Part shown: positions 4,954 through 22,017 of the stretch, piece after piece | Numbering within the stretch: position 1 is the stretch's first letter | Layout: the number at the start of each line of letters is the position of its first letter | Source of the DNA: a virus | Taxonomy: Duplodnaviria > Heunggongvirae > Uroviricota > Caudoviricetes | DNA length: 64,000 nt | IMG/VR virus record: IMGVR_UViG_2908567220_000002 | Coordinates: 33,901 to 97,900 of that record | Direction: 5' to 3' (one strand) | Notes under the pieces: model-generated | What the model was told of the DNA's origin: nothing | The model's input: the letters and a program-made list of their open reading frames with translations, nothing else | Databases searched by the model: none | Position numbers and translations under genes: made by a program

Positions 4954-5310
4954 TTATTCAGTTCTTGATTTTGTCGCCCTGCGTATCCGCGCTTTCGCGT
5001 TACGCTCAATCTGAATTAGCTTTTCTATATTTTTCCGCCTTTCCTGTTCCTCCTGGAGCAATAACCTTACATCATCTGCCAGTCTGGTTTCTCTTTTCGC
5101 CACAGAGAGCATCCAGTCAAATGGCTCCACAACTGCACCGCAGATTTTACAGCGGACCTGACGCTCTTTTTCGTCAACCCGGACAGAGGCGTGATGGCAA
5201 TATGGTCTTTCCGATGGCTCATAAAGAAAATTAACCTGATTACGAGGGTCATCCTCTTTTGCCGGAAATAAAACGATATTGCTTAACTCATCTTCTGGTT
5301 TTATTTCCAT
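4954..5310 (-). CDS. Hypothetical protein with Cys/His cluster
   Basis: Likely start MEIKPEDE (tracked ORF 4954..5391); CHH...CKIC motif then basic coiled-coil-like tail. Confidence 0.45.
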   Translation of the reverse strand: MEIKPEDELSNIVLFPAKEDDPRNQVNFLYEPSERPYCHHASVRVDEKERQVRCKICGAVVEPFDWMLSVAKRETRLADDVRLLLQEEQERRKNIEKLIQIERNAKARIRRATKSRTE

Positions 5311-6907: not shown

Positions 6908-6947
6908 AAGCCCTCCTGAAAATTACCTCATGACCAGAAATTAACAC

Positions 6948-8024
6948 TTACCCCCTGAAGCCCGGCGGAATTTCGTTATCCGGTTCAGAAATATGATTCA
7001 CACAACGCTGGTTGTTCGTGCCGCTTACCGGGAGCAACCAGGGGTTCTCAAAATTCCGGTCCGGTCCAAAAAACGTCGTCGCTCGCTGAACAAATTCCGT
7101 TCCCGTTTTCCCGGTAGCCGCCAAGTATCTTGCGTAACGCCTCACGCCATCCAGCATGGCCTCTGGTGGCACCCCCTCGCGTAATCTGGCCTTCCAGGCA
7201 CTGAAAGCGGATTTCTTCGGGTTTGCCCCAGCACGCAACGGGTACTCCCGCCAGACCTGTTCGAACACATCCGGATAATCCACTCGTCCCACAGACTGCC
7301 CGGTGTTTTCCGGGACTACCCGATCGGCTTCCCGCTGAATGGCGGAATCGGCTTCGGGCTGCTGCAGTTGGTGTGATTGCTCCGGCCTTGCGGTCATCAC
7401 CTGCTGCACAGCGCCCGAATCGGCTTTCAGCGCATACGCTGAATCGGCTTCCGGTGTCGTGCCTGCTAGCTGACCAAGATTGACGGTCTGAACATCCCCT
7501 GCCTGGTTCGTGGCGTTTTTTACGCCATGGACCATAGTGTTTTGATCTTCTTGATCTGTATCTTTATCTGTATCTTTATCTGTCGTGACTCGTCGTGACA
7601 TGTGCGTGACATTTCGTGACGCGCCGTGACAATCGCCATTTTGTTCCCGCTTTCTTTCCCTCTCTCGCTGCGCCCTCTTGCGCTCTGCCGGAGATTTTGC
7701 GGTTTGCGAAATATTGCCGTTGTCCTCTTTAAGCACCTGGCGTTTTTCCCATCCAGTGATTAAATCACCATCAAGTACCCGCCCCTGCATCGTCTGCAAA
7801 ATTGAATCAATTACCTCTTCTGTCACGTCGAGCGCACTTGCCAAATCTTCTGTCGTGACATCAATGTGACCTCGCGTGACATTTCGTGACGCGCTCACCA
7901 GGAGGTGGATATACACTGCCATCACTGTTGCAATTGGCTGCCCTGACACCCTGGCAATTGTTCGCCACTTAGGGTCATTTGGCATGTCATGCCATAATCT
8001 GAGCCAGGCGTTAGCCATACTCAC
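6948..8024 (-). CDS. Replication initiator (O-like), with internal origin iterons
   Basis: 358 aa; position after cro/YdaT; internal DNA iterons encode TDKDTDKDTD; C-terminal 20 aa shared with B's replication protein. Confidence 0.7.
   Translation of the reverse strand: MSMANAWLRLWHDMPNDPKWRTIARVSGQPIATVMAVYIHLLVSASRNVTRGHIDVTTEDLASALDVTEEVIDSILQTMQGRVLDGDLITGWEKRQVLKEDNGNISQTAKSPAERKRAQRERERKREQNGDCHGASRNVTHMSRRVTTDKDTDKDTDQEDQNTMVHGVKNATNQAGDVQTVNLGQLAGTTPEADSAYALKADSGAVQQVMTARPEQSHQLQQPEADSAIQREADRVVPENTGQSVGRVDYPDVFEQVWREYPLRAGANPKKSAFSAWKARLREGVPPEAMLDGVRRYARYLAATGKTGTEFVQRATTFFGPDRNFENPWLLPVSGTNNQRCVNHISEPDNEIPPGFRG
7545..7630. repeat. Putative replication origin iterons inside the O-like gene
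   Basis: Tandem TATCTTTATCTG repeats, then CGTGAC repeated about every 10 nt; second cluster at 7843-7886. Confidence 0.6.
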
Positions 8025-8089
8025 CTCTTCTGATACCGAATCTTTTTACTCACGAGTTGCCGGAAGCGATTCGATATGGCTATTGTCAG

Positions 8090-8515
8090 TCAATGTACTG
8101 CCACAGCATTTCCTGCCGGGCCACCACGGTTCATCTGATTGAAACCGGCGATTGCCACTGCGACAAAATCATCAGCGTCTCTCACCAGTCGCTCCCGCGT
8201 CTCCACCAGCTCCCGAAAATAAGCTGAACTGTGGCTGCGCATTCGGGCCACCAGCAGAGGTGGCATTGCTTTTTCGATAGCTGGTAACAACGCCTGAATT
8301 TTTTTAACCGCATCAGGGGTGTCTTTCTCCACCCAGCGGAAAATTTTCTGAGTATTGCGAGCCAGGGCTTCCGGATGGCTGTCGTCATACAGTTCCGGGA
8401 ACGTCATTCCCAGCTCGAAATACGCTTTGGTAATTTTCGCAGCCGGTACTTTTTCGCCGTCCGGATGCGCCCAGGCATTCATCGCCATGCGGATGTGTTC
8501 ATGCTTGATTTTCAT
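8090..8515 (-). CDS. YdaT-like protein (CII position)
   Basis: 141 aa MKIKHEHIRMAMNAWAHPDGEK...; paralog at 56864..57289. Confidence 0.65.
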   Translation of the reverse strand: MKIKHEHIRMAMNAWAHPDGEKVPAAKITKAYFELGMTFPELYDDSHPEALARNTQKIFRWVEKDTPDAVKKIQALLPAIEKAMPPLLVARMRSHSSAYFRELVETRERLVRDADDFVAVAIAGFNQMNRGGPAGNAVAVH

Positions 8516-8766
8516 GAATCAACTCCCATCAGCTTTTTCGTAGTAGTTTTATTCCTGCCAATAGTTAAAATTGCATCGGCAGAAAATAATCCGTTTGATG
8601 CAAGAGCGATTTTTTCAGCGTAATTTGTTTCGCCGGTATATTCTGTGCGAGGCAATTTTCCGTTATCCATCCATTTATAGATTGCTCTTTGGCTGACACC
8701 ACAAACGTCGGCCACAACAGCAACGCGAACAGTTTTGATTACATCTTCAAGTGTTTTCTGGTTCAT
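8512..8766 (-). CDS. Cro-like HTH regulator
   Basis: Likely start MNQKTLEDVIKT (tracked ORF 8512..8838); divergent from repressor gene. Confidence 0.6.
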   Translation of the reverse strand: MNQKTLEDVIKTVRVAVVADVCGVSQRAIYKWMDNGKLPRTEYTGETNYAEKIALASNGLFSADAILTIGRNKTTTKKLMGVDS

Positions 8767-8845
8767 ATCACCCTCACAATGTGAACTTTGAGTACATGCT
8801 ATAACAGAACTGACAGTACATTCAAGAGCGAATATCATTGAACTT
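8767..8845. promoter_or_regulatory. Divergent promoter/operator region between cro-like and repressor genes
   Basis: Repeated AGTACAT-type half-sites (GAGTACATG, CAGTACATT); similar GTAC motifs downstream of repressor gene at ~9320-9370. Confidence 0.45.
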
Positions 8846-9265
8846 ATGGTTCATGAAGATAAAGCGCGTAAAGAGTTCGCCAGTAGGCTTGCGCTAGCCT
8901 GTGAAAACGCTGGTTATGAACAACATGGAAGGCAGGCAGAAATTGCCCGTCGAATGAAATTAACACCAAAAGCGGTTAGCAAATGGTTTAATGGCGAAAC
9001 AATTCCTCGCCGGGAGAAATTAAGGGAATTAGCAACACTAATAGGAACAACACCAACCTATCTTTTGGGAGAGGATACAGAAGAAAGTGGACAGGTACGT
9101 TTCTATCAGGAGTTAAATCCAAGACAAAAAATCATCATTGACCTTCTGGACGAGCTCCCTGACAGTGAGACAGATGAACTTTTAAAAACTCTTGAAGAGA
9201 AAAAACAGAAGTACAATGCAATTTACGAAGAGTTAGCACGAAAGAAAAAACAAAAAGCCTCTTAA
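8846..9265 (+). CDS. Prophage repressor (RacR/DicA-like HTH, no S24 peptidase domain)
   Basis: 139 aa; N-terminal HTH region; C-terminal 50 aa nearly identical to B's repressor at 57655..58074. Confidence 0.7.
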   Translation: MVHEDKARKEFASRLALACENAGYEQHGRQAEIARRMKLTPKAVSKWFNGETIPRREKLRELATLIGTTPTYLLGEDTEESGQVRFYQELNPRQKIIIDLLDELPDSETDELLKTLEEKKQKYNAIYEELARKKKQKAS

Positions 9266-9559
9266 ACCAGCATAAATCCGGTAGCGCCTTCCTCCGGGTT
9301 TGTGCTTCACTTTATCCCATCTCATTTTTTTACACACAAAATGTACTAAAAGTACTTTACAACAATGAACGCAAAGTACATTATATGCCTGCCACCCACC
9401 CCGCCCCACAGAATGCAGGGCAATACTTCGAGTTACCAGGCAGTGGTCAGGGGGTAAGTAGCCAGCCCGAGGCGTAAGAACATGACGGCAGGGTTCAACT
9501 TTAACTATGCAGCAGGTTTTTGTTCCGCTACCCCGGCGTTAAGGGGAAATGAGGTCAAC

Positions 9560-9715
9560 ATGGATACTATCGATCTTGGCAACAACGAATCTCTGGTATA
9601 CGGCGTGTTTCCCAACCAGGACGGAACGTTCACCGCGATGACGTATGCCAAAAGCAAAACGTTTAAAACCGAATCTGGCGCGCGTCGTTGGTTGGTAAGA
9701 CATTCAGGTGAATAA
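9560..9715 (+). CDS. ydfA: YdfA-like protein
   Basis: 51 aa MDTIDLGNNESLVYGVFPNQDGTFTAMTYAKSKTFKTESGARRWLVRHSGE. Confidence 0.75.
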   Translation: MDTIDLGNNESLVYGVFPNQDGTFTAMTYAKSKTFKTESGARRWLVRHSGE

Positions 9716-9716
9716 A

Positions 9717-9863
9717 ATGAACGAAACAGAATTAAAACACGTTATCGCTCTGCTTCTGGAGGATGCAAAACGCCTCCAGCAACTGGAACCAAATGCAGGC
9801 ACTGAAGCCCGCATCTGGCTGGCATTGTACGCTATTGAGTCAGGTCGTGATGATGAAGGTTAA
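9717..9863 (+). CDS. YdfB-like small protein (tentative)
   Basis: 48 aa MNETELKHVIALLLEDAKRLQQLEPNAGTEARIWLALYAIESGRDDEG; hand-translated, below track cutoff. Confidence 0.55.
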   Translation: MNETELKHVIALLLEDAKRLQQLEPNAGTEARIWLALYAIESGRDDEG

Positions 9864-10144
9864 GCATCATCTAAGTTTTTTACATAGCGCCCATTAGATT
9901 CGGTAACAAGAACACCGGGATTTTTCTTAACTTTTGAGGCCACTGATTCAGCAAGGTCAGCAACAGATTCTTTGTCTTCATTCTTGCTTGAATATATATA
10001 TTCGGCATTAGGAAGACGGTAGGTGTTCCCTAAAGAGGTTGTAATCGTTCTGGAGAATCCCTTTGCTTCCATTCGTTCATGAAGCTTATCGTAATCAGCG
10101 GAACTGGAATCGCGAAGTTCGATCCTGACTGTAAATTTTGCCAT
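9860..10144 (-). CDS. Hypothetical protein encoded antisense to the early-left operon
   Basis: Start MAKFTVRIELRD with GGAGGA SD 4 nt upstream. Confidence 0.5.
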   Translation of the reverse strand: MAKFTVRIELRDSSSADYDKLHERMEAKGFSRTITTSLGNTYRLPNAEYIYSSKNEDKESVADLAESVASKVKKNPGVLVTESNGRYVKNLDDA

Positions 10145-10159
10145 TTTATCCTCCATTTA

Positions 10160-10455
10160 GGTTCTGGGTTAGAAATGGAGACCAATACGGGGCTACGTGT
10201 GGTCGTGCGCCGGACACGGATAAGAATCCGGCACTGACAGTTTACTGAAAGGATATTTCCCTGAAAAGTCAGGGCATAACACGAAAGCGTACGGCGAAGG
10301 CCTTCACCTATGAGGCTTGTCGTTAATTTCTTCGACCGTGCGCTTCCGGTTGTGGCACTCCGCGAAATGGCGCGGCGGTAAGTATGGCGGGGTTATTCCT
10401 TCCCCCGTTGAGGACACCGGGTTGTCAGGTTGACCATACGCTTAAGTGACAACCC
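10160..10455 (+). other. Conserved non-coding element (also upstream of DicF in prophage B at 59100-59410)
   Basis: ~290 bp highly similar between prophages with small indels, no conserved ORF; inverted repeats GGGTTGTCA / TGACAACCC. Confidence 0.5.
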
Positions 10456-10504
10456 CGCCATAACTCATACTGCTATAGATATATGGGGACTAACCGGAGG
10501 AAAA

Positions 10505-10726
10505 ATGATAGTTCAATGCACAGACGGGAATAATAAGCTGCTCTGGTCATACGATACCGTCAGCCAGAAACACATAATGAATATGACTTTTATAAAGGAC
10601 GGTACTCAACAAAAAATCATTACCGCCCTTGCAAGTGCATTAACTCAGGCGACAAGCCAAATTCTGCTATCTGATAACGTTAATGGAGTATCTGATATTG
10701 GCTCGATGACCGGGAGGGAGTGCTAA
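10505..10726 (+). CDS. Small hypothetical protein (73 aa)
   Basis: GGAGG SD 5 nt before ATG; MIVQCTDGNNKLLWSYDTVSQKH...; lies in the segment that replaces DicF. Confidence 0.4.
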   Translation: MIVQCTDGNNKLLWSYDTVSQKHIMNMTFIKDGTQQKIITALASALTQATSQILLSDNVNGVSDIGSMTGREC

Positions 10727-10930
10727 TACAACATTCCAGTAACCCGAGTGGGGCACGGTAATATTGGCAGGGAATCGTTCATAGAAACCGCCGTAATAGG
10801 TAAAACGCCCGCCCCGCTTGAAAGCCTGGTAATTTGAATCATCCATTAATAAAACATTAATCTGGTGTGAACATTGAACCCTGACAAGGTCACCATCATT
10901 CATGTGTTCACGACTATGTATATGGGACAT
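10667..10930 (-). CDS. Small hypothetical protein (88 aa), convergent with and overlapping the preceding ORF by 60 nt
   Basis: AGGAG SD then ATG; MSHIHSREHMNDGDLVRVQCSHQINVLLMDDSNYQAFKRGGRFTYYGG... Confidence 0.5.
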   Translation of the reverse strand: MSHIHSREHMNDGDLVRVQCSHQINVLLMDDSNYQAFKRGGRFTYYGGFYERFPANITVPHSGYWNVVLALPPGHRANIRYSINVIR

Positions 10931-11456
10931 AAACACTCCTTTTTACTGTGGAAAGCTAAATCATATCACGGTCTATGAAGTAAAAAGTGAATTTCGTGAT
11001 GCGGTGAATGCGGCTCAGCGCACGCAGAACAGTTAAAAACACAAGTGTTATGGGTGAATCATCCGGCGTTAATTGCTAACTGGTTAACGTCACCTGGAGG
11101 CACCAGGCACCGCATCACAAAGTTCACTTAGGTGATGAAAGGTAGAGAAAATGTTGAATGTAGCTATTGAAAACCAGAACGGGTGGAATTATAGTGCACC
11201 TGCACCTCATAAAACGGGTGCCGGGCGTGGAAACCCGATGTTCACTAACGCGCATAACCGCGCTCAGGCGGTTTTTTTATGCGTAATGCACAGCCACATT
11301 CAGATTATGGTGGGACGTGCAGGGCAGCCGCAAGGCTGGCCGGGTTCGTTAGTGACCGGTATTTCCACCCCTGTACGTCTCACCACCCTTATGGTCGTGG
11401 AAAACCTTGGTGGTGAGTTAATCAAATTCACTAACGAGGCTGCTATCATGGCTACT

Positions 11457-12002
11457 ATCCCTACCCTTTCTCAACCTGACGTAACCATCGAAAATGGTCG
11501 CGCTGTCACTACGTCTGTTGCGATCGCCGAGTTCTTTGGCAAACGCCACGACAATGTTATTCAAAAAATAAAATTACTGGATTGCTCCCCTGAATTCACT
11601 GCCCTTAATTTTAAGGTGAGCGAATACACCGACTCAACCGGGCGCAAACTCCCTATGTACCAAATCACCAAAAACGGCTTCGTTTTCCTGGTGATGGGCT
11701 TCACGGGCAAAAAAGCCGCAGCTTTCAAGGAAGCCTACATCGCTGAATTCGATCGCATGGAGGCAGAGTTGTACCAGCTTAATACCACTACCACAGACAA
11801 AATAATTCCTGGTGATGGTCGCACTCTCGTTGTTCACTTCGACGAACGCGGCAATATCAAATTCACCGAAACCGTTCCTGACGGCGCTCTCGTCTGTACT
11901 CTGGATACTTTCCGCTTTTATCTGGAGAAGCAGGGGTGGACTCTTGTAAACAGGAGCGCAATTAAAAATATGACCGTCGAGCAGTTGCTGAGTATTAAAT
12001 AG
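11457..12002 (+). CDS. Rha-family phage regulatory protein (antirepressor-like)
   Basis: Start MATIPTLSQPDVTIENGRAVTTSVAIAEFFGKRHDNVIQKI matches Rha N-terminal domain; tracked ORF 11151..12002 extends upstream. Confidence 0.65.
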   Translation: MPTLSQPDVTIENGRAVTTSVAIAEFFGKRHDNVIQKIKLLDCSPEFTALNFKVSEYTDSTGRKLPMYQITKNGFVFLVMGFTGKKAAAFKEAYIAEFDRMEAELYQLNTTTTDKIIPGDGRTLVVHFDERGNIKFTETVPDGALVCTLDTFRFYLEKQGWTLVNRSAIKNMTVEQLLSIK

Positions 12003-12048
12003 TTTTCTGGAATTTTCTTAATGCGACAAATTTATTAAGGAGATAATT

Positions 12049-12270
12049 ATGATTGCTCATCACTTCGGAACTGATGATATTCCTCGTCAGTGCGTGACTC
12101 CCGGTGATTATGTTATTCATAAAGGAAGAACATATATTGCTTCGGTAAACAATATAAAAAAACACCGGCTCTATATTCGTGATTTTTCCACACAACACTG
12201 TATTAATGAAACCATGATTAAAGTCTTCCTTGATCGTGATGGTTTACCTGTAAAGGCGGAGTCGTGGTGA
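12049..12270 (+). CDS. Hypothetical protein (73 aa)
   Basis: AAGGAG SD; AT-rich; between Rha and exonuclease genes. Confidence 0.4.
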
Positions 12271-12387
12271 GCTGTAATAAAATAACTACCCCAATACGAC
12301 ATTCAGTTTAATAAATACATCAGATTCGATTCTTATATGCCAGCAATGGCAGTGACTTGTTCACCCCTAAATCTGTAATGAGGTTTA

Positions 12388-14826
12388 TTGATGAGCACGA
12401 ATAAAGAAGTGTTTGCGCTATATTGCGAAGCTAAAAATGACAAGGTCAGAAAGCGTCTCGGTATTAAAGGTGGCTTTTTCTGGATCGAAGCCAAAAAACT
12501 TTCCGTTGCAGTTTCCCGCTGTATTGCCGCTATGGACGATGCTGGCTACGACGAAGATGATTTCAAAAAAACAGTTCGCGTCCATTTGCCTGTTCTAAAT
12601 GACCTGCCACCTGAAGGCGTATTTGATACTGATTTCTGTAACCGTTACGAAAAAGGTGGAGAAGATGGCATCACAATGATGCCGGTACCGTCCAGCAACA
12701 GCGATGAAAACAGTAACGCCGCTAATACTAACGTCAACGGCGAAGACATGATTGAGATTGAGGAGAATATTCTTCTGCCGGTTTCAGGTCAGCTTCTGCC
12801 TGTTAGATGGCTGGCACAGCACGGCAGCGAAAAACCTGTCACGCATGTTTCACGGGATGAACTGCGGGCATTACATAACGCACAGGAAGAAAAACTTCCC
12901 GCCGTTACCGCTCTGGCCATCTCAAATAAAGCAGTGCAACTCGAACCGCTGGAGATTCGGGATTTGTACAAACTGGTGCGGGACACTGACAAAGTTTTTC
13001 CCGCCCCCGTAAATTCAGACCTGGGACTGATGACTTCCTTCATCGAAGCATACCTGGACGCTGACTACACCAATCGCGATCTGCTTACAAAAGAGTGGAT
13101 GAAAGGAAATCATGTTTCGCGAATCAGCCGCACACCATCCGGCGCTAACGCTGGCGGCGGTATTCTTACCGATCGCGGCGAAGGTTTTGTACACGATGAT
13201 GCATCACTGGCGCGCGACGTAGCCACTGGCGTGCTGGCCCGTTCAATGGACGTGGACATTTATAACCTTCATCCGGCACACGCTAAACGCGTCGAGGAAA
13301 TTATCGCTGAAAATAAACCGCCCTTTTCTGTTTTCTTCAGCAAATTCATCACCATGCCGGGCCACAAGGATTTCTCCCGTGCCATCGTGGTTGCCTCCGT
13401 GAAAGAATCACCAGTTGGTATAGAGGCTATGCCCCACCGTGTCACCGAATACCTGAATAAAGTGCTGACTGAAACCGATCATGCCAACCCTGATCCGGAA
13501 ATCGTGGATATTGCCTGCGGTCGCTCCTCTGCCCCGATGCCGCAGCGTGTAACTGAAAAAGAAAAACATGATGAAGAAAAACCGCAACCATCTGGCGCAA
13601 TGGCAGATGAACAGGCAACGGCTGAAACAGTGGAACCGGATGCAACTGAACATCATCCGGACACGCAGCCGGTGGATGCTCAGCCACAGGTGAATTCTGT
13701 TGATGCGAAATATCAGAAACTGCGGGCAGAACTCCATGAAGCTAGGAAAAACATTTCGCCTAAAAATCCTGTCGACGCAAACAAATTACTGGCAGCCTCT
13801 CGCGGAGAATTTGTTGAAGGGATTAGTGACCCGAATGATCCGAAATGGGTTAAGGGGCTCCAGACTCGCGAGTCTTCGAACCAGAATCAACCAGAAGTGG
13901 AACAAACCAAGCCAGAATCGGGACAAAATAGCCAGGATGCACACCAAAATGAACCAAAAACGATACATCCGGAGCCAGCAGCGCAACATGCACAGAAAAA
14001 TCCCTGTAATGTTTGTGGGGAAACTGGCGGGGGCACATGCCCTGACTGTGCCTCAGTAATGGGTGACGCAACTTACCATGAGACATTCTGCGAGGAAGAT
14101 TCAGATGAATCTCAGGAAAAAGCTCCGGAGGAGATGGAAAACCCTGAACATCCGCATCCGGAAAATACTGACAGCAATCAGCATAACAATAGCGGTGATA
14201 AAACTGACAGGACGACAAATTCCTTAATTAATATGCACGGTCATCAGAAAAGAACATCCACCAGCAGAATGTGTCACCATCTGATGATCGACCTTGAAAC
14301 AATGGGAAAAAATCCTGATTCCCCGATTATCTCAATAGGTGCAATATTTTTCGATCCGCAAACCGGAGAGATGGGACCAGAATTTAATAAAACCATCGAT
14401 CTGGAAACTGCTGGCGGAGTCATTGATCGGGACGCGATCAAGTGGTGGCTGAAGCAATCACGCGAAGCGCAATCTGCCATTCTGACCGATGAAATCCCGT
14501 TAGATGATGCACTGCTGCAATTGCGGGAATTTATCGCCGAAAACTCCGGTGAATTGTTTGTTCAGGTCTGGGGAAATGGAGCCAACTTCGACAACGTGAT
14601 TTTGCGCCGTTCATATGAACGGCAGGGTATCCCCTGCCCGTGGCGCTACTACAACGATCGCGATGTACGCACAATCATTGAACTGGGAAAATCCATAGAC
14701 TTCGATGCCAGGACGCCTATTCAATTCGAAGGCATACGCCACAATGCGCTGGATGATGCCCGTCACCAGGCGAAATACGTTTCAGCAATCTGGCAAAAAC
14801 TGATCCCGAATCAGTCTGATTTTTAA
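12388..14826 (+). CDS. Large early-left protein with C-terminal DEDDh (DnaQ-like) 3-prime-5-prime exonuclease domain; exodeoxyribonuclease VIII-like position
   Basis: 812 aa; C-terminal [25 protein letters not shown] motifs; [15 protein letters not shown] zinc-ribbon-like motif; C-terminal ~190 aa identical to B's 60109..62580. Confidence 0.7.
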
Positions 14827-14889
14827 TGTTCAACCCCAGTCGTCGCCCCCAGCTATAGTGGCGGCGACCATGATTAGCGAACGATACTC

Positions 14890-15138
14890 ATGGCAAGACT
14901 TATTCTGCTCACTGAGTGGGCAAAAGAGGAATTCAGCGATCCGGTCCCTACTCCGGGCACGTTAAGTAAATACGCTAAAGCCGGAATGATATTTCCTCTC
15001 CCCAAAAAAGTTGGAAGACACTGGCGAGTGGATCCGCGAGCTCGCTTTGTCGGAATGGTAAACAAGCCGGAGGTGATCGCCACAGATCACCCTGCTTTAA
15101 AGAGGATACTGGAAGATGGCACGCCCGCGAAAATATAA
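14890..15138 (+). CDS. xis: Excisionase-like protein
   Basis: 82 aa immediately upstream of and overlapping int; identical copy at 62644..62892. Confidence 0.65.
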   Translation: MARLILLTEWAKEEFSDPVPTPGTLSKYAKAGMIFPLPKKVGRHWRVDPRARFVGMVNKPEVIATDHPALKRILEDGTPAKI

Positions 15139-16246
15139 AACCGCTGTTCCGGGATTATCTCCGTATTTTGACAAAAGAAATAACAAAGTTTACTGGCGTT
15201 ACAGGCATCCCATCACAGGTAAAAATCATGGACTCGGCAGTATTGACCAGAAACTGGCGGAAACCATTGCAGCAGAAGCGAACAGCCGTCTTGCCAGACA
15301 ACAAATGGAGCAAATGCTCAGTCTGCAGGAGAAAATTATTAGTGATACCGGCGGCGCATCAACCGTTTCCATTTTTCTGAATAATTACAGAAAAATTCAA
15401 CAGGAAAGATATGAGAACGGAGAGATCAAACTCAGCACGCTGAAGCAAAAAGCGGCTCCTCTCAGGGTGTTTGATGAACGTTTTGGAGCCAGGCCGCTAG
15501 ATGCCATAACAGTAAAAGATGTGGTATCGGTGCTGGAAGAATACAAGGCAAAGGGACATAACAGAATGGGACAAATTTTCAGGAAGGTATTGATCGATGT
15601 TTTCCGGGAGGCTCAACAAACGGGTGATGTCCCGCCAGGCTTTAACCCGGCTGAATCGGCAAAAAAACCGCAAGTGCGGATATCAAGACAGCGACTGACT
15701 TTTGATGAGTGGATGATGATTTATAACGCAGCGGAAAAGGATGGTTACTTTTTACAGCGCGGCATGCTGCTGGCACTGATGACGGGCCAGCGTCTTTCGG
15801 ATATTTGCAAAATGCAGTTTTCGGATATCCGGGATGGTTACCTTCATGTCGAACAGCAAAAAACAGGAGCCCGGATAGCCATTCCTCTGGCTCTGCGTTG
15901 CGACAAATTAAATCTTACCCTGGGTGACGTGGTGTCATCCTGTCGTGATTACATCCTTAGTCCGTGGTTATTGCACCATCATCACGCTAAGGGGATGGGT
16001 AAGCGCGGCGGGATGGTTAAACCAGCAACGTTAACAGTCGCATTTAAAAAAGCCCGGGATTCTGTGGATTACAACTGGCGTGCTAATGGCACGCCACCCT
16101 CTTTCCATGAGCAAAGATCTTTATCAGAACGATTGTTCAGAGAACAGGGAATTGATACCAAAATTTTGCTGGGCCATTCGAATCAAAAAATGACCGATGT
16201 TTACAACGATGCACGCGGTAAGGAGTGGAAAAAACTGGTCATTTGA
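15116..16246 (+). CDS. int: Tyrosine-type phage integrase
   Basis: 376 aa; terminal gene next to att region; intact version of B's disrupted copy. Confidence 0.9.
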   Translation: MARPRKYKTAVPGLSPYFDKRNNKVYWRYRHPITGKNHGLGSIDQKLAETIAAEANSRLARQQMEQMLSLQEKIISDTGGASTVSIFLNNYRKIQQERYENGEIKLSTLKQKAAPLRVFDERFGARPLDAITVKDVVSVLEEYKAKGHNRMGQIFRKVLIDVFREAQQTGDVPPGFNPAESAKKPQVRISRQRLTFDEWMMIYNAAEKDGYFLQRGMLLALMTGQRLSDICKMQFSDIRDGYLHVEQQKTGARIAIPLALRCDKLNLTLGDVVSSCRDYILSPWLLHHHHAKGMGKRGGMVKPATLTVAFKKARDSVDYNWRANGTPPSFHEQRSLSERLFREQGIDTKILLGHSNQKMTDVYNDARGKEWKKLVI

Positions 16247-16260
16247 TGACCAGTTTTGCA
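16234..16260 (+). terminator. Hairpin overlapping int stop, followed by T-rich tract
   Basis: Perfect palindrome CTGGTCAT-TTG-ATGACCAG then TTTTGCAG; three direct TTTTGCAGA repeats at 16253-16286 may be integrase arm sites. Confidence 0.4.
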
Positions 16261-16302
16261 GAAGAGTTTTGCAGAGATTTTGCAGAGAAAATTAGAAGCG
16301 GT

Positions 16303-16419
16303 ATCCGGCAGAGAACATAAACACCCACGGATCCAGTCGTACCGCGTCTTTCACGGGGGTTCCATTAAATTTATAGCTGGCGGTTGTGTCGATATCCATG
16401 TACCACACTGGTAGGTTTC
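16303..16419 (-). other. ompW: Phage-borne ompW 3-prime end fragment marking the att region / prophage A-B junction
   Basis: Encodes ...WYMDIDTTASYKFNGTPVKDAVRLDPWVFMFSAGYRF*, matching the OmpW C-terminus as recalled; upstream sequence is not ompW. Confidence 0.6.
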
Positions 16420-17005
16420 AAAAAACACAATAACCAATTGTATTTGAAGCAAAAAAACAAGACTTTGAGATGTTTTTTTGTACCTTTTTTTATGCTTTTA
16501 ACTGTCTGATTTTATTGAAATCTTTTTTAGTTTTGCAGAAGGAATTTTTTACTTGATTGTAACTTTTTCGTTTTTTTGGGGCTAATTGACGCGCAATGCT
16601 GGGCGGGGAGCGCACAGCCAAAAAAACCGAAATTGACCGCTAATTACTGCCAATCATCATCGCTCTGATTGAGCGTAAATCATTCAGGTTATTCAGTTCT
16701 TCCTTCTGCTCTCGCTGACGTCAATAAATCCCATCATTGCGATCAACCTCATCCTTAACCATTGATGCGAGCAGTTCTTCCAGTTTCTGCGCTGACAGCT
16801 TTACCTGGTGATCTTCAGCATCTTCCCGGGCTATTGTGGTTCGCGCAGTGGCTGATTTTGCTGACATCACCACAGGGGGCAGACGGACCATTGAACCATG
16901 GCCTCCGGAACAAATAAGGGCAAAAATAACAACCACTATCGAAAGCTCACAAACTAACCGCAGCACGTTCCTGCATACGACGTGTCTGCGGCATAATCCC
17001 AATGA

Positions 17006-17275
17006 TTACTCCCTGACAGGATTTGCAGGCCACTCAATATCAGGTACAGTTGATGTATCAACACGATTCAACAATACCCGATATTTATTCCATGCCTCCA
17101 GCAACGATCTTTCTTCCTCCGTTGCGATTTCCAGATCTACAGCATCCTGCAGTGGCGCAATATACTCACTGAATTCCTGGATGTAGAACTGTGTGGTGAC
17201 GGTCTTCCAGCCATTCGGCTCCTGCTGTATCGAAGCATACCAGGCTATTTCAATATCGCTATGCTGCGGCAGCAT
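17006..17275 (-). CDS. Tail fiber assembly (Tfa)-like protein, truncated variant
   Basis: 89 aa; C-terminal ...[50 protein letters not shown] is a Tfa C-terminus; 3-prime part repeated at 18055-18195. Confidence 0.6.
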
Positions 17276-17331
17276 TTAACCCCTTGTAATTCATCGCCAT
17301 AATTGATTTAATTCACAAATAAAACTATAAC

Positions 17332-18000
17332 ATGGTGAAATCAATGAAAAAAAACACAGATGATGGGGCTAAAATTTACACACCACTTACCCTAAAGCTT
17401 TATGACTGGTGGGTTTTGGGAGTATCAAATCGGCTTGCATGGGGATGTCCTACAAAGGAACACCTTCTTCCACACTTTCTGGAACATGTAGGTAACAACC
17501 ATCTGGATATTGGTGTTGGAACTGGGTTTTACCTTACTCACGTACCTGAGAGTAGTCTGATATCTTTAATGGATTTGAACGAAGCTAGCCTGAACGCGGC
17601 ATCTACAAGGGCTGGGGAATCAAAAATTAAACATAAAATTAGCCATGATGTTTTTGAACCTTATCCCGCGGCGTTACATGGTCAATTTGATTCCATTTCC
17701 ATGTTTTACCTTCTTCACTGCCTGCCTGGAAATATATCTACAAAAAGCTGTGTAATACGCAATGCGGCGCAGGCCTTAACTGACGATGGAACTCTATACG
17801 GAGCCACAATTCTTGGCGATGGAGTTGTGCACAATAGCTTCGGTCAAAAACTGATGCGCATTTACAATCAGAAAGGCATCTTTTCAAACACAAAAGATTC
17901 CGAAGAAGGCTTAACACATATACTCTCAGAGCATTTCGAGAATGTTAAAACCAAGGTTCAAGGTACTGTAGTAATGTTTTCCGCTTCAGGGAAAAAATAG
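17332..18000 (+). CDS. Class I SAM-dependent methyltransferase, substrate unknown
   Basis: 222 aa; Rossmann SAM motif LDIGVGTGFY; AT-rich; flanked by direct repeats of Tfa 3-prime sequence. Confidence 0.8.
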   Translation: MVKSMKKNTDDGAKIYTPLTLKLYDWWVLGVSNRLAWGCPTKEHLLPHFLEHVGNNHLDIGVGTGFYLTHVPESSLISLMDLNEASLNAASTRAGESKIKHKISHDVFEPYPAALHGQFDSISMFYLLHCLPGNISTKSCVIRNAAQALTDDGTLYGATILGDGVVHNSFGQKLMRIYNQKGIFSNTKDSEEGLTHILSEHFENVKTKVQGTVVMFSASGKK

Positions 18001-18054
18001 CATCCAACCGCAGCACGTTCTTGCTTAAGACGTGCTGCGGCATAATCCCAATGA

Positions 18055-18237
18055 TTACTCCCTGACAGGATTTGCAGGCCACTCAATATCAGGTGCAGTT
18101 GATGTATCAACACGGTTCAGCAACACCCGATACTTTTTCCAGGCTTCCAGCAATGAGGTTTCTTCCTCCGTTGCGATTTCCAGCTCAACAACAGTCTGAA
18201 CGTACCGGGAACAGCCTCCTTCAGAGCTTGAAGGATA
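18055..18237 (-). pseudogene. Tfa C-terminal remnant with no start codon, directly after the stf stop
   Basis: Encodes ...[43 protein letters not shown] in frame after stf TGA; no ATG. Confidence 0.55.
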
Positions 18238-21200
18238 TCAATGTTCGCTTCCTGTTAACTGCCGGACAAGTGCAACCAGTTCGCTTACCTGATTTTCCAG
18301 AGTGCTGATCCGGGTGTCTGCTGTTGCCAGATTTTCACGTAGCGTTGTGTTTTCCTCTTCCAGCGCGGTAACGCGATCATCTGTTTCACGGGCGACCTGA
18401 ACAAGTAAACCCGTCACGGCGGCGTAGTCAACATTAAGATAGCGCGTTTCTTCGCGTAGCTCGTTGCCGTCAACGGTCGGGCCTTGCAACTCTTCACCAT
18501 AATGAGTAAACGATCCCACAGCTTCTGGTATCGCCTCCATTACTTCCTGTGCAATAACGCCAGCATAAGGCATCCCGTTTTCCCTGAGCGTGTAGGTGTA
18601 TCCGTTCATTTTACGGATTGCTTTCGTCGCGTCGCTGATAACGAGAATATCGTCTTTAAGGTCGCGGTCTGATGACTGATTCAGCGTTGTGCAATTAATA
18701 GCGCCATTTACATCAAACAACTGGCCTGCTGACGTTTTTTGCGCATAAAACAGATACGCAGCAGACGTTCCAACCTCAAAAACGTTTTGTCGAGTACTGG
18801 AACCCCACACCCTGACAGAAAACGGCAGTTCTGCATTGCCTGAGTTCTGTAAAACAAAACGATTACCAGTCCCTGATTGCTTTGTAAGGGTTAAATCAAC
18901 GGTTGAGTTAACCTCATTCTTGTTGATAGTGAGCGCCTGCGCTGTAGCCCCGTTAACAGCACCTGTTTTGAGTTGAACCGCGCCGTCATTACCATTTAAC
19001 AGTATCTCAGCTCCGCTAAAGAAATTTTTTAGCGACAGCATCTTACTTACGCCGACTGATGAACCCAACGCCCACGCGAGAGAATTACCGGTGCTATCAA
19101 ACCCACGTACAAAGCAATCCATTTTGCTATAGTCTGACGTGCTTCCAAGGACATCAATTCGCCCTCCGCCAGATTTTACCGGACTAGATGTGGTTAACGA
19201 CCTGACAGTTATATCCTGATTCCATCCGGAAACAACAACCTGACTCCACGCTGTCCAGTTTCCATTAACAACAAAGCGAACGTATATACGTTTTGTGTCG
19301 CTGTTAATCAGCGTTTGCATGTTCGCATAATCTGAATCCCTAACCTTACGAGTCGACTCTACACGGAGCAAAAAGTTACCGGTTACACCGTCAGGCTTGT
19401 TGGTGATATTTGCACCACCTCCAGAGGATGGACAACTATAGTATTTAACCGCCCCGGCATCTGACCTGATGGTCAGGTTGTTAAGATCAACCTTCTGGCC
19501 GCCAATGTTTTCAGGCTCGATGGCTCCTGCTATCCCGGCACTGAACGTAGCAGCGGCTGAAAACGCTGTCGTACCTTTGAAAGCCAGTTGACCACCAATC
19601 GTTAATCCCTTGTCGAGTTTCGCTTGCGTGATCAATTTGCTGTTTTGTTTCTGATCAGGACTCTCGCCAAAAGCCAGATCCCCATTAGTATCAATTCCAA
19701 GATACTTTTGGTTCACGTTGTCTAACTTAAACCCAATGGACACATTTTCAGAAGAACCGGAACGCGTTAAAACCAACGGCGTGTGCTGTACTCCATAGAT
19801 GCTGAGCGTAGTTGCCGATGAGTCAGTGTCGGTATTTGCAATCTCAATCGTTCTGCTTTTAATTTTATACGCTACTGTGAGATCACGGACTTCAACCCTC
19901 CCGTCGTGACGAACAACAAGATCCCCTCCTGATGTCCCCCCTGCTGTCTTTGCCCTGATGCGAACTTCGCCAAGCGAATCAGTGTTAGGACCAGCATAGA
20001 TTATGCCGCGCTCTGTGTTATCGCCAGTATAAAACCGCAAAGCGGTGACTCCACTGTCTGCCCGCAGGAAGACTGACGGTGTACCTTTTTTGATTGTCAA
20101 GTCACCGGTCATTGTATCGCCGGTTTTTTTTACCTGCGCATCGTTCGTTACGTTGCCAAGTCCAACATCCGATTTCGACGGCTTGTTTGCCGAGCCGTAT
20201 AGCTCATTGACGCTAAAAGTCCCGTTGTTAAGCCGGGCATCGGTGCCGGCATAGATCTTAATCTTCGCGGTTGAGTAGTCGATATTGATCGCTGACCACG
20301 TATCGCCGCACCGCGAGAATATACCAGAACCGTGGCTATAAATGGTCGCCGTGCTTCCGGTCGGCTTATCACCGCGCCAGAAATGACCACCTTTGTCACG
20401 CAGAGCTTTTAAGATCTCTACATCGCTCATCTTGCCGTTTGTTGATATCCCGCTACCGCCAAGACCGAAAGCGCCTGTAAGCATAGCATTAGAAAGACCC
20501 AAATCTGCTTTAGTCGGCTTGTTTAACTGGTCGTAAATCCTTACAACGGGGCTTTCAACATATCCAGAAGGCGCGGCGGTTTGCTTAACAAATCCGTCTG
20601 GAATGTATAATTCCGTGCGTGCCGTCTGCGCCAGTACCGCAACCTTTGCGCCGTTGATAAATGCGCGCTGGAAGGCCCAAACCTCAATAAAGCCATCACC
20701 TTTAACCAGGCCGTAACGCATCTGGTTGTTATCGGTCAGCCCGGTTGACCCTAAGCGGCGTATACTCAGATGACGAGAAACATTATCCGCACTAAGCAAA
20801 GAAGGCATACCGCGCGCCGAGATCTCGATAAAGTCAATGTTTCCGTAAGGGGAGCCGTAGTTACCAGCGTTAGTAACCATTAGCGTTACATGGCAATTGC
20901 CGCTTCCGGGATCGGAAAGTTTCGCGATCTTTATGTAAAAAGACTCATTACCAGTAACAACGGGCCAATCGTATTGCGTCATCGGGCTGACGAGTCCCCC
21001 GACCTTGTCGAGATATTCTTTCGCCTTGTTCTCTGACGCTTTAGCGTTGGTTTCGCTGACCTTTGCTGCTGCCTCACTATTTTTCGCGTTGGTTTCTGAT
21101 TTTTTGGCTGCTGTCGCGGAGTTTGCCGATGCAGTTTGTGAGTCTGCTGCCGCCTGTGCGCTGTTATCCGCATTCGTCTCAGACGTTTTTGCGGCCTTCG

Positions 21201-22017
21201 CGGAATTTCCTGCCGCCGTTGCCGAGGAAGCTGCACTACTGGCACTTGATGATGCGTTCGTTTCTGATGATTTCGCTGCCTCTTTTGAGGCCGCCGCATC
21301 CCGGGATGAGGTGGCAGCTTCTGACGCTTTCGTGGTCGCGGTGGATGCAGAAGTGGCTGCAGATTTTTGTGACGCTGCAGCATTCGTTTCTGACGTTTTC
21401 GCCGCACCGGCACTGGTGGCTGCCGCGCTTTTTGAAGACTCTGCGGCGGCAGCACTTTTTAATGCTTCAGTGGCCTTTGTTGATGCCGTTCCTGCGCTGG
21501 AAAAAGCCTCCTGAGCCGACGTCGCGGCCTGTCCGGCTGACGTTCTGGCTGCGCGTGCTGAGTCTGCAGCATCAGTCGCATGGGTTGCCGCCTCACGGGC
21601 TGATGTGCCGGCATCGCTGGCTGACTTCTTCGCGGCTGCCGTGTTCTGTGCCACTGCGGACGCGTTACGCGCCACCTCTGCCACCATCAGTTCAAAGCGG
21701 CGCAGTGCCTCCGGACGGGCATCATCCTCCGTCATGGCACCGAGAAAATCATTCAGCGTACCCGGTTGTGAGTCTTCATACACGGTGATGGTCCCGGCAT
21801 GCGATGGCGGGAAGCCTTCCACCAACAGAATAACGCTGTACTGACCGTACTCAACGTCCATGCTGTAACGCCCTGCTTCATCCGGATTTTCAGATGCCAC
21901 CGTGTTCACCACCACCGTGGTGCTGTTACGTTTTGCTTTCAGCTGGATTGTGCAGTTCTGTACCGGTTTACCTGCACCGTCTTTCAGTACACCTGAAATC
22001 TTTACTGCCATATTCAC
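18238..22017 (-). CDS. stf: Side tail fiber protein (Stf-like) with Ala/Ser/Thr-rich repeats and C-terminal chaperone-type domain
   Basis: 1259 aa; low-complexity KSAATSA.../SETNA... repeats; C-terminal segment resembling autoproteolytic tail-fiber chaperone domain. Confidence 0.8.
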   Translation of the reverse strand: MNMAVKISGVLKDGAGKPVQNCTIQLKAKRNSTTVVVNTVASENPDEAGRYSMDVEYGQYSVILLVEGFPPSHAGTITVYEDSQPGTLNDFLGAMTEDDARPEALRRFELMVAEVARNASAVAQNTAAAKKSASDAGTSAREAATHATDAADSARAARTSAGQAATSAQEAFSSAGTASTKATEALKSAAAAESSKSAAATSAGAAKTSETNAAASQKSAATSASTATTKASEAATSSRDAAASKEAAKSSETNASSSASSAASSATAAGNSAKAAKTSETNADNSAQAAADSQTASANSATAAKKSETNAKNSEAAAKVSETNAKASENKAKEYLDKVGGLVSPMTQYDWPVVTGNESFYIKIAKLSDPGSGNCHVTLMVTNAGNYGSPYGNIDFIEISARGMPSLLSADNVSRHLSIRRLGSTGLTDNNQMRYGLVKGDGFIEVWAFQRAFINGAKVAVLAQTARTELYIPDGFVKQTAAPSGYVESPVVRIYDQLNKPTKADLGLSNAMLTGAFGLGGSGISTNGKMSDVEILKALRDKGGHFWRGDKPTGSTATIYSHGSGIFSRCGDTWSAINIDYSTAKIKIYAGTDARLNNGTFSVNELYGSANKPSKSDVGLGNVTNDAQVKKTGDTMTGDLTIKKGTPSVFLRADSGVTALRFYTGDNTERGIIYAGPNTDSLGEVRIRAKTAGGTSGGDLVVRHDGRVEVRDLTVAYKIKSRTIEIANTDTDSSATTLSIYGVQHTPLVLTRSGSSENVSIGFKLDNVNQKYLGIDTNGDLAFGESPDQKQNSKLITQAKLDKGLTIGGQLAFKGTTAFSAAATFSAGIAGAIEPENIGGQKVDLNNLTIRSDAGAVKYYSCPSSGGGANITNKPDGVTGNFLLRVESTRKVRDSDYANMQTLINSDTKRIYVRFVVNGNWTAWSQVVVSGWNQDITVRSLTTSSPVKSGGGRIDVLGSTSDYSKMDCFVRGFDSTGNSLAWALGSSVGVSKMLSLKNFFSGAEILLNGNDGAVQLKTGAVNGATAQALTINKNEVNSTVDLTLTKQSGTGNRFVLQNSGNAELPFSVRVWGSSTRQNVFEVGTSAAYLFYAQKTSAGQLFDVNGAINCTTLNQSSDRDLKDDILVISDATKAIRKMNGYTYTLRENGMPYAGVIAQEVMEAIPEAVGSFTHYGEELQGPTVDGNELREETRYLNVDYAAVTGLLVQVARETDDRVTALEEENTTLRENLATADTRISTLENQVSELVALVRQLTGSEH

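Follow-up and report, generated by a model that had tools for sequence, protein, structure and literature searches.

How did a gene for a SAM-dependent methyltransferase come to lie between two copies of the 3' end of a tail-fibre-assembly gene (tfa), and what could its product do? The locus is part of a 64,000-nucleotide stretch of DNA (hereafter, the window) from a virus of the Caudoviricetes, in which the methyltransferase gene follows the side tail fibre gene (stf) on the opposite strand. Our answer, which we consider very probable, is that a lambdoid prophage integrated in ompW carries a ybcY moron cassette at its right end, that the core of this cassette lies between the 3' ends of two tfa alleles and was shuffled by way of tfa homology, and that it encodes a small-molecule or lipid enzyme.

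The initial annotation had described the gene as AT-rich, 222 amino acids in product length, and encoding a class I SAM methyltransferase. Class and composition hold (GC is 0.41, against 0.51 in stf), and the open reading frame at 17332-18000 (+ strand) is intact, with Methyltransf_12, 23, 25 and 11 matches that exceed the Pfam cut-offs. The length needs a small correction. The true start is probably ATG 17344, which gives a gene at 17344..18000 and a protein of 218 amino acids instead of the 222 counted from ATG 17332, because residue M5 is invariant across 35 aligned homologues, the majority of which start there, and because the match to phrog_2132 (E=4.2e-157) pairs residues 5-222 with positions 1-218 of 218, the full family profile. 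The SAM motif LDIGVGTG occupies residues 58-65. Residues D59, G61, G63, G65 and D81, which make up the motif I GxGxG and the acidic residue at the end of beta-2, are invariant in the 35 homologues, as are D106 and D120, and the alignment holds 57 invariant columns across genera. Invariant residues specific to YbcY are Y24-D25-W26-W27, C39, H129-C130, N168 and Y178-N179-K181-G182, and the N-terminal helix is conserved and rich in aromatic residues (YDWWVL..SN..AW). The AF2 model (pLDDT 90) has the seven-stranded beta-sheet of the class I fold. Fold and motifs thus confirm a class I (Rossmann-fold) SAM-dependent enzyme, for which SAM binding and methyl transfer are predicted.

Judged by its sequence and surroundings, the gene is ybcY, an already known stand-alone prophage cargo methyltransferase; the gene order is tfa, ybcY on the opposite strand, then a tfaX-type chimeric reading frame, and the annotation of phage PhiR26_1 names the gene YbcY. 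Of 5426 complete E. coli genomes, 3832 (71%) carry it, with up to 4 copies, as do 14 records of lambdoid phages. The unit as a whole, from one tfa copy through the gene to the other, is covered to at least 80% in 2932 genomes, and the window aligns with the K-12 ybcY locus at 96.7%. A core chromosomal gene flanked by coincidental repeats is not what these data describe: in E. coli it is carried by prophages, and the repeats are no coincidence. The layout is therefore real but ordinary, since it is the same in K-12 and in most E. coli genomes, and its discovery value is small because annotations have included the gene and its arrangement ever since the K-12 genome.

The direct tfa 3' repeats of about 190 bp and their hairpins are as first described. 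A repeat search paired 16956-17149 with 18006-18198 at 90% identity and a spacing of 1049-1050 bp (repeats D1 and D2), far beyond chance, and a gapped alignment of the two copies covers 189 bases with one indel; 10 of the 16 coding differences fall at third codon positions. Copy A (16956..17182, - strand) consists of about 55 codons of an A-type tfa 3' end and a hairpin with its stem at 16958-16991 (-18.8 kcal/mol, z=-4.1, + strand). Over 227 bp it matches the 3' end of the full-length PhiR26_1 tfa at 89% identity, and the copy A region 16290-17182 is collinear (93%) with the 3' end of the intact tfa in the ECE228 prophage. In mEp460 and many genomes, one copy only of the A-type hairpin and its flank is present. 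Copy B (18006..18237, - strand) consists of a hairpin with its stem at 18008-18040 (-23.9 kcal/mol, z=-5.9, + strand) and a B-type tfa 3' remnant that abuts the stf stop codon. This remnant (18055-18237) was said to be start-less, and it indeed holds no ATG, GTG or TTG on the minus strand and matches only positions 86-130 of the 131 in Caudo_TAP (E=1.5e-20). Neither copy has what a complete Tfa would have, namely the N-terminal domain of Caudo_TAP (PF02413) and a start codon. Each copy looks like the 3' end of a tfa allele of its own, and the pair would therefore be scars of recombination and not a newly duplicated target. Across genomes, breakpoints recur within the tfa copies at query positions 73/74, 96, 1085/1091 and 1216-1238. 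Both copies also match the Rfam IS009 'sRNA' just under threshold; we rejected a separate RNA gene and ascribe the match to tfa homology, because in K-12 the family matches best within the tfaD coding sequence.

Copy A supplies the 3' part of an 89-amino-acid reading frame (17006..17275, - strand) whose N-terminus had been called novel. It is instead the 5' end of a small gene family, phrog_3893, whose profile matches residues 3-37, while the TfaX-like profile phrog_2341 matches the whole length. The first 30 or so residues (17183-17275) are unrelated to Tfa, and the rest matches only positions 75-130 of Caudo_TAP (E=1.7e-24). PhiR26_1, 2G7b and K-12 have this chimera with a replaced, truncated or frameshifted C-terminus, and for that reason we rejected the idea of a functional mini-Tfa; it is probably a relic. 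Within the mobile core (17183-18005, GC 0.41), a divergent promoter region separates the truncated phrog_3893 gene from the methyltransferase gene. A Citrobacter freundii locus (L019) matches 17189-18012 of the window at 92%, and tblastn found no Tfa-like sequence on either side of that core. There, a full 80-amino-acid phrog_3893 reading frame, with an N-terminus in common with the 89-amino-acid frame, lies divergent from the methyltransferase gene, and the 38-residue N-terminal piece accompanies the methyltransferase in 14 of 14 phage records. The phrog_3893 gene is the native divergent neighbour of the methyltransferase gene in Citrobacter and part of the mobile unit.

On the other side of copy A lies the end of the prophage. 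A DUF4376-domain pseudogene (16640..16909, - strand) is a relic beside the tfa copies; in a 99.8%-identical locus (L001), RefSeq annotates the DUF4376 gene (3041-3310 there) as a pseudogene with an internal stop. Beyond it, a 3' fragment of ompW (16292..16417, - strand) marks the hybrid att junction of two tandem lambdoid prophages and the right end of the one that bears the cassette. The assignment follows NZ_AP022105, with which the window is collinear from 16290 and in which RefSeq annotates an 'OmpW family outer membrane protein, partial' beside yciE. In the left prophage, the integrase ends at position 16246. Two loci without the methyltransferase are informative. In ECE228 (L028), whose sister prophage also occupies the ompW site, the same ompW and DUF4376' flank is followed by an intact tfa and a classical stf. 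NZ_OZ547155 carries exactly the single-copy junction predicted from copies A and B, that is, DUF4376', one tfa remnant and an S74-type stf, in one 702-bp piece at 97.4%.

The insertion of the gene within tfa, as first proposed, is thus correct in one sense, as the cassette interrupts tfa relative to ECE228, but it is not a private insertion, given the K-12 DLP12 layout and the presence of the gene in 71% of genomes. We asked whether the methyltransferase gene could have entered a functional tfa recently, duplicating about 190 bp of target and inactivating tfa and hence the side tail fibre. The direct tfa 3' repeats do bracket the gene, and in the comparison with ECE228 the cassette sits where the intact tfa would run on. 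However, the repeats have diverged by 10% and each type is single-copy elsewhere, and the same cassette is found in thousands of genomes and in K-12. The fibre gene also speaks against it. The stf product (18238..22017, - strand; 1259 amino acids) joins a lambda Stf N-terminus (Pfam phage_tail_N, E=6.6e-72) to a C-terminal Peptidase_S74 intramolecular chaperone with an SDRDLK motif (PF13884, residues 1116-1167, E=8.1e-12), so that the fibre has a chaperone of its own; RefSeq calls its homologues 'pyocin knob domain-containing S74 family peptidase'. In established fibres of this type, such as those of K1F and T5, a self-chaperoning S74 domain makes a separate Tfa dispensable. Phages mEp460 and Ayreon carry the same junction of stf and tfa remnant at 95-96%, with no intact tfa at the stf locus and no intact methyltransferase gene, and Ayreon retains only the last 36 bp or so of that gene together with the promoter and phrog_3893 side, by an internal deletion of 17306-17964. 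In phages with a classical stf, such as those of the PhiR26_1 type, ybcY stands beside a full 194-amino-acid tfa. The recent insertion is therefore largely refuted, and we give it hardly any credence.

What remains of the earlier claim that tfa is inactivated is that both copies are truncated. The methyltransferase gene is not the cause, because mEp460 and Ayreon share the junction while lacking an intact copy of it and because the classical-stf phages keep tfa beside ybcY. Copy B would rather have lost its 5' side when an S74 module replaced the C-terminus of stf. By comparison with mEp460 and Ayreon, we infer that the S74-type fibre of the present prophage may work independently of Tfa.

We therefore return to a cassette shuffled through tfa homology, for which the following order of events may be proposed. 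In a donor phage, a tfa would have stood ahead of the cargo, with copy B as its end; copy B would later have been cut on its 5' side as a self-chaperoning S74 fibre tip replaced the distal stf and tfa module. Copy A would be the end of another tfa, with which the phrog_3893 gene was illegitimately joined. Conserved as they are, the 3' sequences of tfa could then act as homology handles, by which the cassette would be shuffled among lambdoid phages, with host-range modules or independently of them, and could be lost again.

The first reading of the gene as prophage cargo in the zone behind the tail-fibre genes is borne out, and several further features fit a moron. The gene is oriented opposite to the late operon, and its GC content is low. 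Reading and scanning of the divergent intergenic region (17276..17343) gave two candidate sigma-70 promoters, TTGATT (17303-17308)-17-TATAAC (17326-17331) and TTAACC (17276)-16-CATAAT (17303). In the K-12 spacer between ybcY and tfaX, genomic SELEX identified a constitutive RpoD promoter, TTGATT-17-TATAAC, and placed H-NS there as well (PMC3946193). The hairpin after the methyltransferase stop codon is stable and has no U-tract on the + strand. From these sequence features ybcY appears to be a low-GC moron with a candidate promoter of its own, and we infer that it may be expressed in the lysogen.

What the enzyme might methylate was approached through its relatives. Structure and profile searches indicate that it most likely groups with small-molecule and lipid methyltransferases and not with DNA or RNA enzymes, without pointing to a specific substrate. 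The nearest solved folds and sequences are JHAMT, PE/PEA N-methyltransferases, UbiG/Coq5, DhpI and MM_2633. Sequence and profile searches of the PDB, together with three fold searches, gave a flat list of small-molecule methyltransferases in which no substrate was singled out, and YbcY reached no family-specific NCBIfam cut-off; CpaM, RquA and PmtA scored 16-18 bits against cut-offs of 175-390. The neighbourhood was similarly silent. Homologues of 56-90% identity are lone genes in unrelated chromosomal islets, at prophage ends and on some 600 plasmids of Klebsiella. Their neighbourhoods in Enterobacter, Salmonella, Yersinia, Aeromonas, two species of Citrobacter and the Klebsiella plasmids showed no partner gene or operon that is conserved. 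In the literature on ybcY and tfaX we found only incidental mentions (a SELEX promoter table, the context of ompT and an Hha-toxicity assay, in which a ybcY mutant had no distinct effect) and no reported phenotype. The substrate of YbcY is most likely a small molecule or lipid, methylated within the cytoplasm of the lysogen or at the inner membrane, in a self-contained role, such as modification or detoxification of a metabolite, that does not involve DNA, RNA or the virion.

An anti-defence function had also been suggested for the gene, in which the enzyme would modify phage or host DNA, or RNA, to evade restriction or other immunity. This found no support. Pfam, NCBIfam and PADLOC gave no DNA or RNA methyltransferase signal, PADLOC assigned YbcY to no defence system (its sole match was mad2 at E=0.009), and 218 residues leave the protein without a target-recognition domain. 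YbcY therefore does not fit the profile of an N6/N4 or C5 DNA methyltransferase, which combines a catalytic (D/N)PP(Y/F) or PCQ motif with such a domain and a family HMM match. The closest relatives by sequence and profile are small-molecule O- and N-methyltransferases, the homologues are ordinary single chromosomal or plasmid genes distant from phage or defence contexts, and the prophage already has an N6_N4 DNA methylase at 45640-46692. We regard a DNA- or RNA-modifying role as highly improbable.

A more specific role in lysogenic conversion of the envelope can be imagined, in which YbcY methylates a lipid head group (a PmtA-like N-methylation of PE) or an envelope precursor and so alters the cell surface beside cargo such as ompT and lom. 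The top Foldseek match in the PDB is a phosphatidylethanolamine N-methyltransferase (8ys9; E=6.6e-12, TM ~0.61-0.67), phosphoethanolamine N-methyltransferases recur in both fold-search lists, and there is a weak NCBIfam match to PmtA. The N-terminal aromatic helix could form a membrane or lipid lid, and ybcY is linked to ompT in DLP12-type remnants. However, the PmtA equivalog (NF045882) scores 15.7 bits against a cut-off of 390, and a TM score of about 0.6 is typical of any class I methyltransferase, with JHAMT, UbiG, DhpI and others scoring equally. We know of no report of methylated PE or PC from natural ybcY+ E. coli, and this role seems to us very doubtful.

The gene could also be a neutral passenger that has no current function and hitch-hikes in a recombination-prone region of prophages, as the frameshift in the K-12 copy, the truncated variants in the family (for example, 161-aa and 130-aa clusters) and the lack of a reported phenotype might indicate. 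Against this, the reading frame is intact at 95% identity or more in about 3800 genomes, and a single 100%-identical cluster has 6589 member sequences. The invariant columns speak of strong constraint across genera, and in TUM13066 the methyltransferase gene is intact although nearly the whole prophage has been deleted (ompT-methyltransferase-tfa'-int'). A neutral passenger is thus unlikely.

At the other extreme, YbcY may be a true lysogenic-conversion enzyme in most E. coli, acting either in PmtA-like methylation of an envelope lipid or precursor or in detoxification of a small molecule from the host or a competitor. We hold this to be speculative and rather unlikely as a whole. If true, selection for its activity would lie behind the repeated capture of ybcY by chromosomal islets, prophages and IncF plasmids of Klebsiella, and the activity would have been overlooked because the K-12 copy is a pseudogene.

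Beyond the single locus, ybcY is among the most widespread cargo genes of E. coli prophages and is strongly conserved across chromosomes and plasmids of Enterobacterales. The laboratory strain K-12 is a natural ybcY mutant, and a wild isolate would suit biochemical or metabolomic study of the substrate. The locus is also a clean worked example of the conserved tfa 3' end as a recombination handle, one that lets host-range modules (classical stf with tfa, or S74 tips) and cargo be swapped and leaves stacked tfa fossils behind.

Compared with known systems, YbcY itself shares just 12-21% identity with the small-molecule class I methyltransferases JHAMT (7ec0), PmtA (8ys9), UbiG (4kdc), Coq5 (4obw), DhpI (3ou2) and MM_2633 (3dtn). 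The adjoining fibre resembles the K1F endosialidase and the L-shaped fibre pb1 of T5 in its C-terminal S74 intramolecular chaperone, but differs in that the domain is attached to a lambda Stf N-terminus and has a fossil tfa 3' end behind it. As cargo, ybcY may be set beside lom and bor, the classical lambda-type morons of the Hendrix-Juhala concept. Like them, it is a single gene with a putative promoter of its own and a hairpin, has a GC content below that of the surrounding late genes, lies in the cargo zone in an opposite or independent orientation and is associated with H-NS (in the homologous K-12 spacer); unlike them, it encodes a predicted cytoplasmic enzyme and not an outer-membrane virulence factor.

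The closest loci are found in PhiR26_1, 2G7b, ev243, Kati and Turner and in K-12 DLP12. The five phages (stf - tfa - ybcY - tfa' - hydrolase - ompT) have the same core at 98-99% identity (17051-18200), and there too it follows the tail-fibre genes at the genome's right end, but they carry a classical Stf and a full-length Tfa, and their copy-A 3' ends are replaced or frameshifted. DLP12 (tfaD - ybcY b0562 pseudogene - tfaX) carries the same gene, in the 99% nucleotide identity class, and shares its orientation to tfa, the TfaX-type chimeric reading frame, the two tfa 3' copies and the promoter hexamers. The two loci differ in that ybcY is intact in the window and frameshifted in K-12, in that copy B is a 60-codon start-less stump joined to an S74-type stf in the window and a 187-amino-acid TfaD in K-12, and in the downstream flank, which is DUF4376' and the ompW att site in the window and appY-ompT in K-12.

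The region at 16945-18237 contains what the initial annotation described, namely the repeats, an intact methyltransferase gene, a start-less Tfa remnant, a chimeric ORF and hairpins. The feature, taken there as new, is recognizable from its sequence as the already known and annotated ybcY cassette of lambdoid prophages. The annotation of the cryptic prophage DLP12 in E. coli K-12 MG1655 gives the same arrangement, tfaD - ybcY (b0562, a pseudogene on the opposite strand) - tfaX, and positions 17029-18200 are 96.7% identical to the K-12 ybcY locus. The gene is also named 'YbcY' in a PhiR26_1 annotation. At 95% identity or more, the gene alone was found in 3832 of 5426 complete E. coli genomes, in 1-4 copies each; the whole unit (copy A, the gene and copy B) was found over at least 80% of its length in 2932 genomes, and the unit with the particular left flank of the window in 869, O104:H4 among them. 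Fourteen lambdoid phage records carry the cassette. In B2-type strains, ompT-ybcY-tfa'-int' is the sole remnant beside a tRNA-Arg gene, with the methyltransferase intact, and the ompT-ybcY context is already in the literature (10.1101/594564). Nothing in the ybcY locus would surprise a specialist.

The intact methyltransferase ORF (17332-18000, + strand, 222 aa) lies between the two repeats and is AT-rich, with a GC content of 0.41 compared with 0.51 for stf, the side tail fibre gene, and 0.50 for the window. Four class I methyltransferase families of Pfam (Methyltransf_12, _23, _25 and _11) scored above their thresholds against it. Because M5 is invariant in an alignment of 35 homologues, the majority of which begin there, and the phrog_2132 alignment covers residues 5-222, the true start is probably the ATG at 17344, giving a protein of 218 aa. 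The same alignment has 57 invariant columns, indicating strong constraint, with the invariant motifs YDWWVL...N..AW.C in the lid, H129-C130 and YN.KGIF.N. In a confident AlphaFold2 model (pLDDT 90.2, pTM 0.86), a Rossmann fold of seven strands is accompanied by a helical lid at the N-terminus. Among PDB entries, the sequence and profile searches matched juvenile-hormone acid methyltransferase (E=4e-6), UbiG, MM_2633 and XrdM; the top Foldseek hit was a phosphatidylethanolamine N-methyltransferase, ahead of JHAMT, phosphoethanolamine methyltransferases, SgvM, CysG and NodS. As for the substrate class, which the initial annotation had not named, small-molecule and lipid methyltransferases are the nearest relatives. 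The Pfam, NCBIfam and PADLOC searches gave no match to a DNA methyltransferase family, to an NCBIfam equivalog or to a PADLOC model. The best-supported reading is that YbcY would be a self-contained small-molecule or lipid methyltransferase. Almost all wild E. coli have the gene, and K-12 has it as a pseudogene.

Two tandem lambdoid prophages (1-16290 and 16290-64000) lie head to tail in the same orientation at the ompW site. At the end of the left one come an ExoVIII-like gene, xis and the gene for a lambda-type integrase (12388-16246), and the ompW 3' fragment beyond them (16292-16417) is the hybrid att between both prophages. The right one runs from the cargo end through stf (18238-22017, -), lom, J, tail and head genes, terminase, a DNA methylase and early genes to a second integrase (63059). 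E. coli WP5-S17-ESBL-10 is collinear with the window from 16290, and there the same prophage end abuts yciE-ompW'. From this gene order and collinearity, the methyltransferase lies at the very right-hand end of its lambdoid prophage, the usual cargo zone. Both prophages have, at their ends, the gene for an 812/823-aa protein whose C-terminus carries an Rv2179c-like exonuclease domain, and that for a tyrosine integrase (15116-16246; 63059-); of the 812/823-aa proteins, only the left copy also matches Exonuc_VIII. At 2937-4431 (+) the left prophage also encodes a eukaryotic-type Ser/Thr protein kinase (Pkinase, E=1e-31) next to a PP2C-type phosphatase, an arrangement that recalls Stk, the exclusion kinase of phage 933W. 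The right prophage has its own N6_N4 DNA methylase (45640-46692, -) and an HTH/Peptidase_M78 (ImmA/IrrE-type) protein (50190-51296, -), and between its terminase and lysis regions a 'Beta_protein' gene on the opposite strand (41925-42992, +; PF14350, E=8e-56), a possible further gene for cargo or defence.

Divergent from the methyltransferase is an 89-aa ORF (17006-17275, -) that matches Caudo_TAP positions 75-130 (E=1.7e-24) and has an N-terminus unrelated to Tfa. This N-terminus had been called novel, but it is that of the phage protein family phrog_3893: its first ~30 residues correspond to the start of a full gene in Citrobacter freundii, where the ORF divergent from the methyltransferase encodes 80 aa, a full-length member (E=7.6e-38). 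The 89-aa ORF is a phrog_3893::Tfa chimera (phrog_2341). We regard it as a probable relic, because its C-terminus differs between phages and strains: PhiR26_1 has a replacement there, K-12 a truncation and 2G7b a frameshift. The phrog_3893 N-terminal piece is present with the methyltransferase in 14/14 phage records and is degenerate in Ayreon. The Citrobacter locus is 92% identical to 17189-18012, and neither of its flanks resembles Tfa or Stf. Together, these observations place the limits of the mobile core at ~17183-18005; it holds ybcY and the truncated phrog_3893 gene, with the divergent promoter region between them. The intergenic stretch 17276-17343 contains a candidate promoter read from the sequence, TTGATT-17-TATAAC (17303-17331), and a promoter scan gave a second candidate, TTAACC-16-CATAAT (17276-17303). 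A genomic-SELEX catalogue of constitutive RpoD promoters assigns the TTGATT-17-TATAAC hexamers to ybcY and lists H-NS in the ybcY<>tfaX spacer (PMC3946193). The candidate promoters, the low GC content and the orientation opposite to the late operon fit ybcY being a moron.

Homologues at 56-90% identity occur as solitary genes in settings unrelated to one another: on chromosomes of Enterobacter and Salmonella, in islets of Yersinia and Aeromonas, at the ends of decayed prophages in Citrobacter, and on ~600 Klebsiella IncFIB/IncFII plasmids, where the gene is inside a metal-homeostasis cluster. No neighbour gene was conserved across these sampled settings. On the Klebsiella pneumoniae plasmids the homologue (6995-7648 of the plasmid locus) is 66% identical to YbcY, and its neighbours are a Fur/Zur-like repressor, two COG0523-type GTPases (ZigA), an iron ABC transporter, an alpha-hydroxy-acid oxidase and DoxX. 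Plasmids of Prescottella/Rhodococcus and Erwinia carry more distant matches. At 4307-5996 of the C. freundii locus, the cassette core has a UmuD/LexA-like peptidase fragment on one side and dinI on the other, so that SOS-related cargo clusters with the methyltransferase there; in mEp460, dinI also comes after the tfa remnant.

The initial annotation considered tfa inactivated by the insertion. Both copies at this locus are partial and no intact tfa is present, but the methyltransferase is not the likely cause. At its C-terminus Stf has an intramolecular chaperone of its own, a Peptidase_S74 domain (residues 1116-1167, E=8e-12), and in endosialidase and T5 pb1 this domain takes the place of a separate assembly chaperone. 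The stf::tfa-stump junction also occurs in the deposited phages mEp460 and Ayreon, both of which lack an intact methyltransferase, and in phages with a classical stf a full tfa is retained immediately upstream of ybcY. On these grounds, the truncation of copy B is attributable to a host-range module swap, and it is unlikely to have disabled the fibre. Between its lambda-type N-terminal domain and the distal fibre, Stf has a long repetitive Ala/Ser/Thr-rich segment (residues ~100-330; AAKKSASDAGTSAREAAT...), and the long ORFs overlapping stf on the other strand or in other frames are artefacts of this composition.

The direct repeats (16956-16984 + 16986-17149 and 18006-18034 + 18035-18198) are 90% identical and lie 1049-1050 bp apart, and a gapped alignment has 189 aligned bases and one indel. 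The initial view of a prophage cargo methyltransferase bounded by tfa repeats is correct in kind. After the stf stop, copy B retains 60 codons without a start codon (18055-18237, -), matching Caudo_TAP (Tfa) only at positions 86-130 of 131 (E=1.5e-20). A stable hairpin ends each copy (B, -23.9 kcal/mol, z=-5.9; A, -18.8 kcal/mol, z=-4.1). Both tfa 3' copies give near-matches to Rfam RF02111 'IS009', at 17049-17252 (-) and 18098-18298 (-), with 112.5 and 95.1 bits against a gathering score of 117; because the best K-12 match (228 bits) is within the tfaD coding sequence, this 'sRNA' family seems to model tfa coding sequence.

Homology of copy A to full-length tfa reaches 17182 (227 bp, 89%). 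A related prophage lacking the insert, in strain ECE228, occupies the same ompW site with the same DUF4376' pseudogene relic (16640-16909) and is collinear with 16290-17182 at 93%; there, the counterpart of copy A forms the 3' end of a tfa that is intact (194 aa) and has a classical stf after it, and the methyltransferase is absent. Copy B departs from full-length tfa at ~18200; the stretch between that point and the stf stop, and the 3' end of stf with it, are common to Ayreon and mEp460 at 95-96%. In mEp460 the order is an S74-type stf, a single tfa remnant, an A-type hairpin with 22 bp of A-type flank, and dinI. In Ayreon the tfa remnant and hairpin B are followed by ~36 bp from the very end of ybcY, an internal deletion (equivalent to 17306-17964), the promoter and a phrog_3893-type gene that continues as in Citrobacter; at this place (2888-3040 of the Ayreon locus) the tfa repeats played no part in the deletion. 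The synthetic A/B crossover junction built from 16700-17100 and 18150-18450 has an unbroken 702-bp counterpart, 97.4% identical, in one genome, NZ_OZ547155; its mEp460-like part, at ~94-95%, is in at least 24 further genomes among the matches listed.

Of the 16 differences between the coding parts of A and B, 10 are at third codon positions, and each type is also found elsewhere as a single copy. A and B are most simply read as the 3' ends of two functional tfa alleles joined by recombination, rather than as a fresh target-site duplication. Across genomes, it is within the tfa copies that homology to the window recurrently breaks off, which fits a role for the conserved tfa 3' end as a recombination handle; that tail-fibre genes are mosaic among lambda, P2, Mu and P1 is well established.
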